Source of the DNA: an uncultured Nitrososphaerota archaeon
GTDB taxonomy: Archaea > Asgardarchaeota > Njordarchaeia > Njordarchaeales > Njordarchaeaceae
Assembly (NCBI GenBank): GCA_964518475.1
Contig: CAZFGR010000039.1
Location: forward strand, 1-11,070
Direction of reading: 5' to 3'
Length of the DNA stretch: 11,070 nucleotides
Below are positions 1,272 to 7,183 of the stretch, piece by piece; position 1 is the stretch's first letter; every line of letters starts with the position of its first letter. The translations under genes were made by a program, and so were the position numbers. The notes under the pieces were generated by a model. The model searched no databases and was not told the origin of the DNA. It saw only the letters and a program-made list of their open reading frames with translations.

Positions 1272-1496
1272 ATGTCTGAAGGAGGAGAAAGTTTTAGAAA
1301 AGCGATAGAAAAGCTCACAAAAGAATTAAAAACTGTTGCGAAAACATTAGAGCAAATCCCGACTCGCGGCTTCATCAGAGAACTATTAATCCTATACATT
1401 CACGAGAAAACGGGCCTTGGTAAGCGGAAGATAGAATACATTCTGGACATAATTAGACAATTTGCAGAAGAAATTCTTAAGGAGGGAGAAGAGTGA
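1272..1496 (+). CDS. Small helical hypothetical protein (74 aa), first gene of early operon; start revised from 1173
   Basis: GGTGAT RBS at 1260-1265 before ATG 1272; the TATA box at 1211-1218 lies inside the longer ORF-track call. Confidence 0.7.
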   Translation: MSEGGESFRKAIEKLTKELKTVAKTLEQIPTRGFIRELLILYIHEKTGLGKRKIEYILDIIRQFAEEILKEGEE

Positions 1497-1756
1497 GCAT
1501 CGAGAATGAGTTACGCGCATTTGAGAGTTTTTCCTGCCCCCGCCTACATAACCTAATACACGAGCTAAAAGAATGCAAAAACATACTAATGCGTGCAGTC
1601 GTGCATACAAAGGATAAAGAAGCAATCGATGAAGTAGCTGAAATAGTAAAAGAAATGCTTATCCTGAGAGAGAAACTAGAAAGATTCGTTAAAAAAGCTT
1701 TTCAAAAAAGAAAAAAGCTCGAAAAACGGCTATGGAGGAGGGCTCTCGATGATTGA
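1493..1756 (+). CDS. Hypothetical coiled-coil protein
   Basis: GTG start overlapping the upstream TGA; GGAGGGAG RBS; charged helical sequence. Confidence 0.7.
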   Translation: MSIENELRAFESFSCPRLHNLIHELKECKNILMRAVVHTKDKEAIDEVAEIVKEMLILREKLERFVKKAFQKRKKLEKRLWRRALDD

Positions 1757-2060
1757 GATCGAGGAGACCGATTTCCACAAATTATATCACCTAAAGATAA
1801 GAACAACACTCGGCACAGTAGAATTCCCAGCAACAATCAACGATATAGTAGACATCTGGAAAGACCTCGGGAACTTCATCCTCACACAGTTCCTCAAACA
1901 ATACAAAACATCATTCCTGATCTCTACCCGCTGGACCAAAGATAAACTAGAATTAACAATAAACCGGGACAGCAAGAAGAGAAAACTGGAGCTACATCTA
2001 GACGAAATAACCCCCCTCGCAGCAATACTAACAATAATAAGCGAGGGGATCCAGGGATGA
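1749..2060 (+). CDS. Hypothetical protein
   Basis: GGAGGAGGG RBS; overlaps both neighbours (translational coupling). Confidence 0.7.
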   Translation: MIEIEETDFHKLYHLKIRTTLGTVEFPATINDIVDIWKDLGNFILTQFLKQYKTSFLISTRWTKDKLELTINRDSKKRKLELHLDEITPLAAILTIISEGIQG

Positions 2061-2347
2061 TCCAGGAAATCTATAACTATATAATAAAAAAGGAAGGACT
2101 CGCGAAATACCAGGATGCGATAAGAGAACTAATAATCTCAAGGAACGGGAAGTACAAACTAAAGTTAAACAAGAGATATCAGCATCTCCGCAGAAAAACA
2201 ACAATAACCGGGAACCTGGAAAACTCCTTATTACAACAACTAGAAAAGACACTGACAGAATTTGGTGCCGCAAAAATAATCGCTAAAATCACTCTAAAAA
2301 AGACGACGGGAAGGGTTTACTTCGACATACTACTTTCTCCGAGGTGA
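2057..2347 (+). CDS. Hypothetical basic protein
   Basis: ATGA start/stop overlap; GAGGGG RBS; K/R-rich. Confidence 0.7.
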   Translation: MIQEIYNYIIKKEGLAKYQDAIRELIISRNGKYKLKLNKRYQHLRRKTTITGNLENSLLQQLEKTLTEFGAAKIIAKITLKKTTGRVYFDILLSPR

Positions 2348-2351
2348 TTCC

Positions 2352-2543
2352 ATGCCCTACAACTACATTATAACTTTCAAAATCAATCGCGATTTACTAG
2401 AACATCTCGATAAACTAGTAAAACAAGGCTACTACAATAGCAGAAGCGAAGCAATCAGAGAAGCAATCAAACAGCTAATAATAATACATAACAACTTCCG
2501 CGAACAACTAAGAAGAGCATGGGGTGAGGAGGAAGATGGCTAG
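2352..2543 (+). CDS. Ribbon-helix-helix (CopG/MetJ/NikR-type) regulator
   Basis: IITFKINRDLLEHLDKLVKQGYYNSRSEAIREAIKQL matches the archaeal CopG RHH pattern; GAGGTGA RBS. Confidence 0.9.
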   Translation: MPYNYIITFKINRDLLEHLDKLVKQGYYNSRSEAIREAIKQLIIIHNNFREQLRRAWGEEEDG

Positions 2544-3108
2544 GAAGAAAGACAAAATAAAATTACCAGATAAACTCTTTACCATTGTGGAAGTGGAGCT
2601 AGAGATTCAGCGCATTGCTGGCGGTGAACCTGGATTAAGTATAAATCAATTCGGAGAGCCAATAGAAACGCGTTTCCAGAACAACATATTTAGGAGAAAG
2701 GAAAATGGCACAAGGATCTTGTTTGAAGAGAAACACGTGAAGGGGCTTTTGAAGGAGGTAGTTAGAATCTTAGGACTGTCAACCAAAGAAAAAGGCATAC
2801 TTTTCAAAATTCGCCATAGCCTGGCAATGGAACCATCCGAAATATTAATTCCTCCTGGCACAGAGGTTTACGGTCGCCCAATACCGGTTCTCTTAGGGAA
2901 CCGGGTATCAATCACATTCACAGAAGTCATCGAGAAACCGCTAAGAGTAAAATTCAGATTAAAAATCCCGAACGGACCAGACGGACCAGTAGTAAGCCCT
3001 GAGTTACTACGTAAATTATTCGAAGTGGGGCAAACTGTTGGCATTGGGGCTAAGAGATCGTTGGGCTATGGCAAATATAAGGTGGTGAAATTCGAAGTCA
3101 TAACTTAA
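2536..3108 (+). CDS. Stand-alone RAMP-superfamily protein, Cas7/Csm3-like (candidate Vipr-type effector), 190 aa
   Basis: N-terminal strand plus IAGG, helix HVKGLLKEVV (cf. Csm3/Cmr4 SLKGxLR), TEVIE strand and C-terminal G-rich loop GIGAKRSLGYGKY typical of group-7 RAMPs; GGAGG RBS before ATG 2536 (start revised from 2524). Confidence 0.85.
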   Translation: MARKKDKIKLPDKLFTIVEVELEIQRIAGGEPGLSINQFGEPIETRFQNNIFRRKENGTRILFEEKHVKGLLKEVVRILGLSTKEKGILFKIRHSLAMEPSEILIPPGTEVYGRPIPVLLGNRVSITFTEVIEKPLRVKFRLKIPNGPDGPVVSPELLRKLFEVGQTVGIGAKRSLGYGKYKVVKFEVIT

Positions 3109-3109
3109 A

Positions 3110-3137
3110 CCTTCTTTCCTTTTTTTTATTTTTTATT
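3110..3137 (+). terminator. Oligo-T terminator of early operon
   Basis: CCTTCTTTCCTTTTTTTTATTTTTTATT right after the RAMP stop codon. Confidence 0.7.
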
Positions 3138-3140
3138 AAA

Positions 3141-3409
3141 CCAATACTGCCCTTTACCTAGCATTACAAAACAGTACTGAACTCTCCTCTCCTCATCGCA
3201 TTACATAACTAGACATAACATTACTTAACAAAACGATCCAGCAGCGCTAAACAAAACACTACTTTACAAAACGCCTCACCCCCATTAGCAAACCTAACCG
3301 AGACGTTCCATAACTCTGCAATCCTACAGCGCTAAACATAACGAGACAAGACGAAACAATCCTGACCCGGCAACACATAACAGTATTTTACAAGCCGGGC
3401 CAGTACTAT
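3141..3409. ncRNA. Pentamer-periodic repeat array, putative guide-RNA (vrRNA-like) array partnered with the RAMP
   Basis: 52 pentamers in 6 phase blocks (3141-3195, 3198-3242, 3246-3285, 3288-3327, 3331-3370, 3370-3409). C at position 2 in 51/52; position 1 A30/C14/G7/T1; position 3 A25/T17/G7/C3; positions 4-5 variable. Example: GCATT ACATA ACTAG ACATA ACATT ACTTA ACAAA ACGAT CCAGC. The periodicity is directly visible; RNA function is inferred. Confidence 0.75.
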
Positions 3410-3521
3410 CTACTCAAGTTAAAATTCACAATAAGGCCCGGAAAGGCCGAGCAATGAAGACATCTTCTGAGCAATGAAGCCCCGGAGCAAATAATTAGTA
3501 AGTTTTTCCTGAGGTGGTGTA

Positions 3522-3600: not shown

Positions 3601-3990
3601 ATGCCCATCAAAACCAGAATTGTTTTTCTCCCGGATTTTAAGATTGATATGCTCCCCTTCAGTTTTTCCACAAAAAAATTCACGATTTACATCGAGAAAC
3701 TAGCACCGATGGAATTCGAAGAAGTAATCAAAAATAATGTAATCGCGGCAAAGCGAGGCTACCAGGAACTAGAGATCCTATGCTTTATAAAACATAAGGA
3801 GACACGGGAACTCCTGAACACAATAATAAAAAACACCGGCTGGAAAATAAAACTCAGCACAGAAACATACAAAGTCCCCGAAAACCCAACAACAGACATC
3901 ATATTAATAGTAAAAGCAGAAAAAGTAGATGAACACGACTACGTCTTTCACACTTATATCGTATACGTGGAGACAGGGTGGAGGGAGTAG
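3601..3990 (+). CDS. Divergent DUF1874 (STIV B116 / AcrIII-1 ring nuclease family)-like protein
   Basis: By-eye match to the remembered family pattern: FLPDFKIDML ~ YLxNAFSxNML, IYIEKLAPMEF ~ VxIxKIxxxEF, CFIKHKETRELLN ~ SIGHxSTxxLxN (His kept); NR and RLxEG motifs not evident; GGTGAT RBS. Confidence 0.55.
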   Translation: MPIKTRIVFLPDFKIDMLPFSFSTKKFTIYIEKLAPMEFEEVIKNNVIAAKRGYQELEILCFIKHKETRELLNTIIKNTGWKIKLSTETYKVPENPTTDIILIVKAEKVDEHDYVFHTYIVYVETGWRE

Positions 3991-4920: not shown

Positions 4921-5145
4921 AACAATTCACCCAAAAAGTATACTATTTACTTCTTCACAGGAGTGTTACTCATTTATTTTTTCACATCACCAAAATGTTG
5001 CGGATAAGAAATAGTAAGCATTACAATAGTCAACAATTTACTCATTCTGTTTACTGTTGATATTTAAAAGCGAATATTTAAACAAACAGCGAATCTAGGA
5101 TAATATATTGCCATATCCCCAGTTTTATTAAGCAAAGGTGAAAAT

Positions 5146-6657
5146 ATGACAGTTTTAGTAAAACTGCCAAGACGCCTTCTCTTCGTGGCCCCAATCCTAG
5201 TCCTACTCATCATACTGCCTCTGGCCCAGGTCCAAGCCCAAGCACCAGTAGTCATAAGGGAGGAAGATGCTGTAATACCATACCTTGAAGCAACAATGGA
5301 TATTTTTATTCCATCGACTTCTGCGAAAATACTCTCAGGTTTTCATACACTTACGACTGGCGACTTTATAGTTATACCAAGAGTAAAACTTGAACTTGGA
5401 ATAATTCCCAGTGGAGATAAAGCAATAGCTTTATTCCGCATCTCGCAGTTCTACTCCAAGGACGGGGTAATAATTAGGTCAACAAACGTCGAGGAATTCA
5501 AAACGGATGCTAAAAAAGAATATTCAAAAGGAATACTGGCAGAGCTACACCCAGTAAGTACGCTAGCTGAATTCCAAGCAAATGCAACGTGGTATACACT
5601 CTCAAGTCCGGTAGAGTCCGATGGAGAGTACTACATATTATATTTCAAGGCTAGTTCTAGAATAACAGTAACTGAAGTTAAGATAGACCCTGACACGAAT
5701 CATTCAAACGGGAACGAAATAGTTCTCTGGAACAAACCGGCAACAGTAGAAGAAAACGAGGAATTCTGGCTCCCACTGCCATACACAACAATAGCAGCAA
5801 TATATGTGGTTACGAAAGGGTCTTATATCCCAGTTACGAAGTTATACTACAACGAACTATCAGTAAGAGACCACAGATTCTTGGAGGAGCAGAACTTAAC
5901 GGTTAACGATACAGAGAGCGAGATAATAAGCGAGGAAACAACGGAGGAAGCGAAAACAGAAAACATCTGGATAGGAGTTGATAGCTTACATGATTACATC
6001 ATGGAAGCGCTGAAGAATACATTCGGAGAGGTTGAGACATATAACTTAACATCATTCAACATTGAGCTAAAAGTAGGAAAGAATATAAAATACGAGACTG
6101 CGGGAATCATCAAATATTCTTGGACCTCACTAGCGATCCTACCGGATCTCTCAGGATGCTTTAGGAAGGTAAGAGTAACGGTAGCGGGATACCTAGATAC
6201 TGTAAGAATGTATCTGAGCAGAACAGCAAGTGAACTAAAGAAGACAGCCACGAGCACCGCGAACCTCGTAGTAATTGGGGCGACAAACGTAGCAAGAAAA
6301 GCATCAGAGACATACAGCCGCATGGCTAAAATGACAACCTCAACGGTTCAGAACTTGGCAGAGAGCATCAAAAACGCAGGGCTAACAGTAAAATCTCTCG
6401 CTGAATCAACGGTAAATAATGTAGGAAAAGCATTAGCAAACGCCAAGAAAACAATTGTTGATGCTGGAGCAAAACTAGTGCATGCCGTTAAAGCAGCACC
6501 AGGAGCAGTTCTCAACTTCGGCAAACTCGCATACGGAGCAGTCACAGGATTCATTAAGAAATTCAAAACGTACATTGTGATTGGTATAATAATCGCAGTA
6601 ATAGCAGTAATCGCGTTACTAAGCTACGGCCTAACAGTAACAAGGAGGAGATTCTAG
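5146..6657 (+). CDS. Type I membrane protein, probable virion envelope/spike or surface protein
   Basis: Signal peptide (..LPLAQVQAQA), beta-rich ectodomain with N-x-S/T sites, long A/T/K-rich amphipathic helical stem, C-terminal TM (YIVIGIIIAVIAVIALLSYGL) and RRRF tail; AGGTGA RBS. Confidence 0.75.
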   Translation: MTVLVKLPRRLLFVAPILVLLIILPLAQVQAQAPVVIREEDAVIPYLEATMDIFIPSTSAKILSGFHTLTTGDFIVIPRVKLELGIIPSGDKAIALFRISQFYSKDGVIIRSTNVEEFKTDAKKEYSKGILAELHPVSTLAEFQANATWYTLSSPVESDGEYYILYFKASSRITVTEVKIDPDTNHSNGNEIVLWNKPATVEENEEFWLPLPYTTIAAIYVVTKGSYIPVTKLYYNELSVRDHRFLEEQNLTVNDTESEIISEETTEEAKTENIWIGVDSLHDYIMEALKNTFGEVETYNLTSFNIELKVGKNIKYETAGIIKYSWTSLAILPDLSGCFRKVRVTVAGYLDTVRMYLSRTASELKKTATSTANLVVIGATNVARKASETYSRMAKMTTSTVQNLAESIKNAGLTVKSLAESTVNNVGKALANAKKTIVDAGAKLVHAVKAAPGAVLNFGKLAYGAVTGFIKKFKTYIVIGIIIAVIAVIALLSYGLTVTRRRF

Positions 6658-6882
6658 ATGGGATTCCGGCCTAGAACAAAAAGAGAACAGCTAGCACTAG
6701 CACAAGCAATAGCATTCGTAATAGCAGTAATAATCACAATAATTTACTTTTTATCACCGATCGACATTATTCCTGATGCGATACCCTTAACAGGCTGGAC
6801 AGACGACGTCGGAGTAGGAATCATCAGCTTAATAATCAGCAGCATATTCTCTCGCGCACTAGTCCAAGAACACTTCGAATAA
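6658..6882 (+). CDS. DUF1232 (YkvA-family) small membrane protein
   Basis: Signature YFLSPIDIIPDAIPLTGWTDD between two TM helices; ATG abuts the upstream TAG. Confidence 0.85.
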   Translation: MGFRPRTKREQLALAQAIAFVIAVIITIIYFLSPIDIIPDAIPLTGWTDDVGVGIISLIISSIFSRALVQEHFE

Positions 6883-6884
6883 TC

Positions 6885-6910
6885 CTTTCCCTATTTTTAT
6901 TATTTTTTAT
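6885..6910 (+). terminator. Oligo-T terminator (overlapping a possible TATA box TTTTATAAAA at 6905-6914)
   Basis: CTTTCCCTATTTTTATTATTTTTTAT after the DUF1232 stop, similar to 3110-3137. Confidence 0.6.
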
Positions 6911-6963
6911 AAAAGCCCGAGAGGCCCGAAAGGGCCCGGCAATCTTAATTATAGGTGTTAATA

Positions 6964-7183
6964 ATGGCGAGGAAGAAAAGAGGCATATTCTACGAACCCC
7001 CCTACTATCAAAAATACGCAGAAATAGTGAAAATGGACACACCAGCAAACGCAAGAAAATCAGCAAAACAGTTAATCGAGAAATCTAAGTACAAAAGAGA
7101 AGAGAGAGCTCCGGGAGATCGCAGGAATATATAGACGGGCAATGGAGAAGGTACAACAAATATACCGTAAGAAATTCAAATAA
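6964..7183 (+). pseudogene. Small basic helical protein split by a frameshift or internal deletion near 7081
   Basis: AGGTG RBS; first frame 6964-7134 MARKKRGIFYEPPYYQKYAEIVKMDTPANARKSAKQLIEK...; the +1 frame 7082-7183 continues as the amphipathic helix NLSTKEKRELREIAGIYRRAMEKVQQIYRKKFK*. Confidence 0.5.

Follow-up and report, generated by a model that had tools for sequence, protein, structure and literature searches.

A period-5 array with a single fixed base beside a Vipr-like gene on an archaeal mobile element, and the strand on which that base lies

One stretch of an archaeal contig, in which the same base returns at every fifth position next to the gene of a small Cas7-fold protein, raises the question whether it is a guide array of the VIPR type and, if so, which of its two strands would be the guide. 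The window (the whole stretch of DNA analysed here, 11,070 nt) corresponds to one complete contig in the bin of an archaeal genome, and TBP is present in the host genome. It encodes a serine recombinase (resolvase) and a tyrosine integrase, which gives a mobile-element setting.

VIPR, a CRISPR-related RNA-guided DNA silencer, was first described in 2026 (bioRxiv 10.64898/2026.04.26.720920,.720927). In the text of these two preprints, Vipr is described as a lone ancestral RAMP that coats vrRNAs consisting of GGY/NN pentamers, and the free NN bases of the vrRNA pair with DNA in such a way that every third target base is skipped. The vrRNAs whose tests are presented there are all G-anchored. In the complex of SUSP1 Vipr (PDB 36pp), as far as it is described, D177 reads G1, W178 stacks on G2, R179 stacks on Y3, and H17 is base-reading. 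What is known of the rules of VIPR comes from a pair of phage systems that are close relatives, namely type II SUSP1 and P. fulva. Other units are also in print: loci without YNNGG are said to carry NNNGG, YNNNG or NNNNG repeats, with ‘staggered’ arrays being described (10.64898/2026.04.26.720920, Methods and legend of fig. S18), and 21 clusters with non-canonical units, including WGT/NN, TGH/NN, GAC/NN and CAC/NN, are presented in 10.64898/2026.10.21.760802. According to the relevant passages of both preprints, the orientation of these non-canonical arrays is assumed, and the staggered arrays stand outside the architectures confirmed by sRNA-seq.

Structure and surroundings of the array

A C on the plus strand (a G on the minus strand) recurs every 5 nt across 3142-3409. 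The autocorrelation of plus-strand C reached z = 8.8, 7.3, 6.2 and 4.1 at lags of 5, 10, 15 and 20, respectively, in comparison with 2000 shuffles of the same composition, and A, G and T on this strand were nearly without period-5 autocorrelation. A phase-tracking model gave 3142-3409 as the limits of the array, with a start possibly at 3138, and divided it into six in-phase runs of 57, 41, 47, 38, 33 and 52 nt with phase slips between them; we infer the unit boundaries listed in Table 1 from these slips. The junction (A/T)(G/A)C-AGCGC-TAAAC is common to two of them. Among ORFs of at least 60 aa, none overlaps the array, and searches for Rfam families and tRNAs gave no match to it.

Table 1. 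Coordinates of the array units and of the neighbouring features in the window.
Feature	Position	Strand	Description
Ribbon-helix-helix gene	2352..2543	+	Pfam RHH_1 3.2e-09; 20-nt overlap with vipr start
vipr-like gene	2524..3108	+	194-aa single-RRM Cas7-fold RAMP; glycine loop GIGAKRSLGYGKY
T-rich spacer	3109..3141	+	T8 and T6 runs, read directly; separates vipr stop from array
Array unit 1	3142..3198		11-12 pentamers, NNNNC on the plus strand; phase-tracking model
Array unit 2	3199..3239		8 pentamers; holds the 27-nt stretch 3204-3230
Array unit 3	3240..3286		8 pentamers; first letters are the junction AGC-AGCGC-TAAAC
Array unit 4	3287..3324		7 pentamers
Array unit 5	3325..3357		6 pentamers; opens with the repeated junction TAC-AGCGC-TAAAC
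Array unit 6	3358..3409		About 9 pentamers, one anchor broken
129-aa ORF	3601..3990	+	Beside the array; no Pfam match at E <= 0.1

The original prediction, made from the sequence of the window, had read the minus strand as WG(T/G/C)-NN in place of GGY-NN, with only the central base invariant. In 48 in-phase pentamers, the successive minus-strand columns are T22/A16/C8/G2, then G47/A1, then T30/G11/C5/A2, and the earlier count of 52 pentamers (T25/A17/C7/G3, then G, then T30/G14/C7/A1) gives the same picture of a pentamer code with one invariant base. A fixed G-G-Y trinucleotide per unit is not present in the array. G is indeed the rarest base before the anchor (2 of 48, 4%), and the base after it is T62/G23/C10/A4 (%). 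The W of the first position does not survive as a constraint: the base 5' of the G has the same composition as the two free columns in the window (chi-square p = 0.36), and with p = 0.38, 0.016, 0.05 and 0.44 in four homologous arrays, it is indistinguishable from free columns in three of the five arrays. The base 3' of the G is biased in all five (p <= 0.002 in comparison with free columns; pooled A11/C20/G23/T45). A better notation for the unit is therefore N-G-B-N-N (B, not A, with T preferred), which has one fixed and one biased position, and the alternative proposed at the outset, two fixed plus three variable positions, describes the columns no less well than WGK/NN does.

The array is flanked by the vipr-like gene and the 129-aa ORF, both of which are on the plus strand. 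The ribbon-helix-helix gene ahead of vipr is a candidate DNA-binding accessory (vap-like), and the same gene pair is found in two homologous loci, L002 and L003. The T-rich spacer, which may be terminator-like or TATA-like on the plus strand, is kept in L002 and missing in L006 and L009. The 129-aa ORF is missing from L002 and L003, which are otherwise syntenic. Just past the array, GAGCAATGAAG occurs twice at 3434-3509 with 20 nt between the copies, near a GGCC-loop-GGCC hairpin, and this arrangement is not kept in L002. Searches of the window with Pfam and Rfam found no CRISPR repeats or other cas genes. A class 1 CRISPR-Cas effector was ruled out on these grounds: there is no repeat-spacer array, no further cas gene and no match to a CRISPR repeat family, and a Cas6 glycine-loop match is below the cut-off.

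The protein and its link to Vipr

The AF2 model of the 194-aa RAMP has a pLDDT of 80.6. Its best structural matches are Csm3 (6ae2_B, Z 10.3 over 152 residues at 3.4 A), 9g9a_D (Z 10.2) and the type VII Cas7 8yhd_A (Z 10.1), and Foldseek also returned Csm3/Cas7, with E of about 1e-5. Pfam gave the ORF only the sub-threshold match to Cas6, and the ORF ends in a RAMP glycine loop. In a search of 1.8 billion proteins, the family profile collected 138, with lengths of about 200 aa, and close relatives were found neither in IMG/VR nor among the GTDB representative genomes. The RAMP is intact, with 52 invariant columns.

For a test of membership without circularity, 120 IMG/VR loci were gathered purely by the DNA pattern (GGYNN)x8. 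When a profile was built from this family together with its relatives, it detected an ORF next to the canonical GGYNN array in 18 of these 120 pattern-selected loci, with E from 1e-10 to 4e-4. The same profile matched the solved SUSP1 Vipr (36pp_D) with E = 0.11 over 146 residues, which is nearly full length, and hhalign of the clade profile with SUSP1 Vipr gave a probability of 38%, in the glycine-loop region only. In the alignment to SUSP1 Vipr, which is reliable only around the glycine loop, D177 is replaced by K and W178 by R, and the equivalent of R179 is kept. Outside this loop the alignment is unreliable; as it stands, strand 1 of the RAMP (motif GGEP) is without a His at the place of H17 of SUSP1. 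Taking the array, the fold and the family link together, we are confident that the locus of the window is a VIPR system and the array a VIPR array.

Homologous arrays and the strand of the fixed base

Five other proteins are 56-84% identical to the RAMP. Period-5 C arrays are located just downstream of vipr, on its sense strand, in L002/L003/L013 (142 nt), L006/L007/L008 (>950 nt), L009 (1.2 kb) and L010/L015 (>1 kb), and a G-anchored array on the sense strand was found in none of the homologous loci. In L004 and L005, beside the 71%-identical protein P0003, the phase-tracking model detected no array; a weak degenerate rhythm is visible by eye in L004, downstream of a small ORF. L004 (1134-1391) and L010 (498-764) have a small gene between vipr and the array, which encodes 85-88 aa with a hydrophobic N-terminus and is followed by a T-rich run and the conserved motif ACAAGGGGC. 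The anchor base is retained at 83-98% in the five arrays, and GG is present in none of them. T after the minus-strand G amounts to 62% in the window and 81% in L002, and secondary column preferences differ between lineages when outgroups are compared for register (the invariant G as G1 or G2). Ordinary GGY arrays, for which the original prediction had advised a comparison of homologous loci, were thus absent, and wherever an array was detected, it has the same one-base anchor together with the bias 3' of the G.

Window and L002 have 75% identity to the left of the array (window 1481-3146, L002 907-2571) and 99.8% over 2 kb to the right of the array and integrase region (window 5029-7080, L002 3646-5697). 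This jump points to a recent recombination between diverged elements, for which the array region would be the breakpoint. The two arrays have a single 27-nt unit in common (L002 2617-2643), which is 100% identical and might have been retained as a guide to a shared target, and share nothing else. Because only this one unit is shared amid flanks of 75% and 99.8% identity, the arrays have the mosaic pattern expected of exchangeable guides, and not that of decay. Since the homologous arrays keep the same one-base anchor, the comparison supports the view that this anchor is a conserved trait of a distinct archaeal Vipr subfamily rather than the residue of a GGY array. The proposal of such a subfamily with relaxed recognition has been borne out in this respect, both by the single anchor of the five arrays and by a protein without the residues with which SUSP1 Vipr reads G1 and G2.

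In SUSP1 (KT454805), the G-strand is the sense strand of vipr for upstream and downstream arrays alike, and G is on the vipr sense strand in 17 of the 18 canonical IMG/VR loci. In the family of the window and the four nearest outgroups compared (L141, L143, L144 and L145), C or CC is on the sense strand; for L143, with a flank of 145 nt, C is seen by eye only, since the lag-5 signal is weak (z of 2.2 for C and 2.4 for G) and the model found no array. Among 80 IMG/VR loci of the clade, sense-strand period-5 C was found in 60 and G in 2 by the lag-5 signal, and the corresponding numbers by run length were 56 and 3. On a maximum-likelihood tree, the C-on-sense trait occupies one side of a single branch with support of 94/97. 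The clade comprises about 107 of 143 cluster representatives and at least 60 phage loci, in addition to the archaeal family of the window.

The glycine loop of the clade is distinctive. Canonical Vipr has G-x-G-(D/T/E/Q)-(F/W/Y)-R, whereas the loop of the C-sense clade reads GAKRS or GA(S/D/N)RSQ and lacks both the acidic and the aromatic residue; this type was counted in 107 of the 143 cluster representatives. The clade is therefore without equivalents of the Asp (G1) and the aromatic residue (G2) by which the SUSP1 loop reads G.

Several loci of the clade depart from this pattern or add to it. G-type runs on the vipr sense strand are present in L148, L171, L172 and L173 of IMG/VR, some loci having runs on both strands, and these exceptions could hold a second, inverted array or gene. 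In the phage arrays of L163, L168, L174, L180 and L196, IMG/VR loci of the same clade, each unit has about seven NNNCC pentamers, and ahead of it stands a constant delimiter (sense strand: CCGAC or GCGCGAC), which gives a phase slip of minus one per unit. P0015, a relative of Vipr, has a glycine loop of the aromatic kind (GLGQFRN), and its gene is set among RecA-like, HNH and metallophosphatase genes, an arrangement that resembles the nuclease-associated VIPR types.

The position of the arrays relative to vipr is informative on transcription. Upstream arrays of the clade end at a median of 31.5 nt before the vipr start codon, with only a Shine-Dalgarno site in the gap, and 29 of 32 are within 60 nt of the start codon. 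The array of L196 occupies all the space from the stop of the preceding gene to the vipr ribosome-binding site. Downstream, arrays start 4 nt (L009) and 14 nt (L006) after the vipr stop, and those of L144 and L145 also abut the stop. In L144, a single strand carries a sigma-70-like promoter (11/12 matches) and, with it, vipr, the array and a terminator of 13 bp, and on the plus strand of L009 the array has a T-rich terminator behind it. Arrays packed in this manner against the stop or the ribosome-binding site of vipr mean that the sense strand must be transcribed, and they leave little room for antisense promoters. Other signals speak against a sense-strand guide: in the window, L002, L004 and L010, the vipr operon is separated from the array by a T-rich, terminator-like run, and T6 runs, at which an archaeal polymerase could halt, are present on the plus strand inside the L009 and L015 arrays. 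On the minus strand, a T-run after the array was found in no family locus. A terminator scan around 75 arrays in GC-rich phage loci yielded too few terminators to inform on the strand, and an Rfam search of eight related loci found no hammerheads, the sole result being a sub-threshold CRISPR-DR9 match in L019. The asymmetry of T-runs within arrays was dropped as a test of the strand, because the sole variant of the anchor is a transition, which itself prevents long T-runs on the G-strand.

The earlier statement that the strand is beyond what the sequence can tell is true of the window alone; comparison with the relatives provides evidence, which leans to the plus strand and away from the minus-strand framing in which the code was originally presented.

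Proposed explanation and rival readings

As a whole, we propose a divergent archaeal VIPR guide (vrRNA) array on a mobile element with the plus strand as guide, an explanation that we consider evenly poised between right and wrong. The neighbouring Cas7-fold RAMP would be the Vipr protein of the array, with one protomer per 5-nt unit by analogy with the SUSP1 complex, and each protomer would hold the fixed base or bases and offer the free ones for pairing with the DNA of a rival element. Each guide would consist of 6-12 units that stay in phase, with a phase slip as its limit, and the scaffold would be reduced to one invariant base and one biased neighbour. The array would be transcribed in the direction of vipr, so that the RNA reads NNNNC (commonly ..AC) and not GNNNN, and the Asp and aromatic G-readers of the glycine loop would have been swapped in this clade for Ala/Ser/Lys-Arg-Ser. 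We infer RNA binding and guide function from this architecture. Target searches with 53 guides under 18 column/skip rules, in comparison with 3 permutations, showed no enrichment in the host genome and the family loci, with guides being short and databases small; only period-5 rules exceeded the permuted guides, by re-finding shared array units. Two 20-base gapped guide patterns had no exact match in IMG/VR, and a search of 14 genomes of the order, in which as many as 2 mismatches were allowed, gave no match to one gapped guide pattern.

Three readings would remove the array from the VIPR systems in working order, and all of them are far from the evidence. The region around the array is A+C rich, and a rhythm could be expected by chance from such a composition; z = 8.8 was obtained against shuffles of this very composition and the pattern is conserved in homologous loci, which makes the idea hardly credible at all. 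Occasionally broken anchors and weakly constrained flanking positions would suit an ordinary GGY/NN array that has decayed and lost its function, yet five independent arrays of up to 1.2 kb, accompanied by proteins of 56-84% identity, keep the anchor without any GG, the protein is intact, and one unit is fully identical between elements whose flanks are 75% identical, so that we regard decay as very improbable. Slightly less remote, though still quite unlikely, is an element acting at the DNA level, such as an array of protein-binding sites, an origin or a phased DNA structure for the mobile element. The location between the operon and the integrase region would be suitable for it, but a 5-nt period with phase slips is unlike the helical repeat, the array goes with a Cas7-fold RNA-binding protein in a fixed orientation in more than 60 loci, and the architecture is that of VIPR loci proven by sRNA-seq and cryo-EM.

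The serious competitor concerns the strand. Here the array would be transcribed convergently toward vipr, from a promoter near 3420-3510, a course of events that we find possible and rather doubtful; the guide unit would then read N-G-(T>G>C)-N-N and represent a relaxed GGY that keeps G2 and Y3 but has lost G1, and for this form of the unit too our expectation is low. Several points speak for this reading. The C/CC anchor is the exact complement of canonical G/GG, which a guide on the minus strand explains at once, and an inverted cassette of promoter plus array would look alike; the T that dominates after the minus-strand G resembles Y3 of SUSP1 (88% T), and the Arg that stacks on Y3 is kept. 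The loss of the G1 readers (the equivalents of His17 and Asp177) fits a loss of G1, the T8/T6 run closes the vipr operon ahead of the array in the window, the vrRNAs tested by experiment in the published descriptions are G-anchored throughout, and the YNNNG, NNNNG and WGT/NN classes are written in this way in print. Against it, the aromatic residue stacking on G2 has also been lost despite the invariant G, the family loci provide no minus-strand T-run after the array, the arrays abutting vipr leave little space for an antisense promoter, whether at the stop (L006, L009, L144, L145) or at the start (29 of 32 upstream arrays), and the published orientations of such arrays, as described, are assumed and are not covered by the sRNA-seq-confirmed set. 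Given a VIPR array, we therefore lean to the plus strand (sense, C-anchored) as the probable guide, and regard the minus strand (G-anchored) as the less likely one, a preference that comes from comparison of sequences.

A relaxed scaffold as such is largely known already. The NNNGG, YNNNG and NNNNG units (10.64898/2026.04.26.720920) and the WGT/NN and TGH/NN units (10.64898/2026.10.21.760802) were in print, the code is not unprecedented, and the window adds an archaeal family to variants that are published but, in the descriptions available, uncharacterised. The new point is the strand. In a whole clade of Vipr, the fixed base is on the opposite strand with respect to the gene, the residues by which the solved structure reads G have been lost, and the arrays are packed within the transcription unit of vipr. 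It may be, and we would put the chances at about half, that this large clade reads cytosine-anchored guides (CC or a single C) from arrays co-transcribed as leader or trailer of vipr, and that NNNGG, YNNNG and NNNNG have been written for the wrong strand in the literature. If so, the VIPR scaffold code is more plastic than described. A sense-strand guide would mean that a change from G to C has occurred at least once in the protein-RNA code; an antisense guide would require an unusual convergent or divergent scheme of expression. The strand bears on the evolution of programmable scaffolds and on target prediction, since it decides which strand and which columns are to be decoded.

Comparison with known systems

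The Cas7 backbones of class 1 CRISPR systems (Csm3/Cmr4 and type VII Cas7) resemble the protein of the window with Z of about 10, an RRM core, a thumb, a glycine loop and one protomer per RNA repeat length. They differ in binding any sequence at a 6-nt period and in forming multi-subunit effectors fed by repeat-spacer arrays, features that the window lacks.

The closest G-sense relatives on the tree are the GA-NNN sister group of Vipr, represented by L019 from an archaeal genome of the same phylum. Its array of 1 kb (342-1396, G267 contig 26) consists of exact 36-nt staggered units (7 x 5 + 1). Unlike in the window, the anchor is a G on the sense strand, followed by A (76%), and the glycine loop GLGQWRN keeps the aromatic residue. 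The CRISPR-DR9 match in this locus is at the gene-proximal end of the array (1382-1415).

The published non-canonical and staggered arrays, so far as they are described, share with the window relaxed or altered fixed positions beside a protein of Vipr fold. The staggered ones are compact, with one guide ending where the next begins, and the window has the same features. When set side by side from the descriptions in the text, the WGT/NN or NNNNG classes are practically the WG(T/G/C)-NN of the original prediction.

The best-known comparison is the type II VIPR of SUSP1, an Escherichia phage, which has Vipr, vap1 and four vrRNAs. Its units are G-G-Y-N-N (G 100%, G 100%, T 88%) on the vipr sense strand, whereas the window has one invariant base, which is C on the sense strand; each SUSP1 vrRNA has a structured 3' tail, whereas the units of the window are closely packed and have no tails; and K and R stand in the protein of the window where SUSP1 Vipr has its glycine-loop readers D177 and W178, with marginal sequence similarity. 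Both are free of CRISPR repeats and other cas genes, and in both a small Cas7-like RAMP stands alone on a mobile element next to non-coding arrays of 5-nt units, which have fixed and free positions and form guide-sized runs of about 6-16 units.
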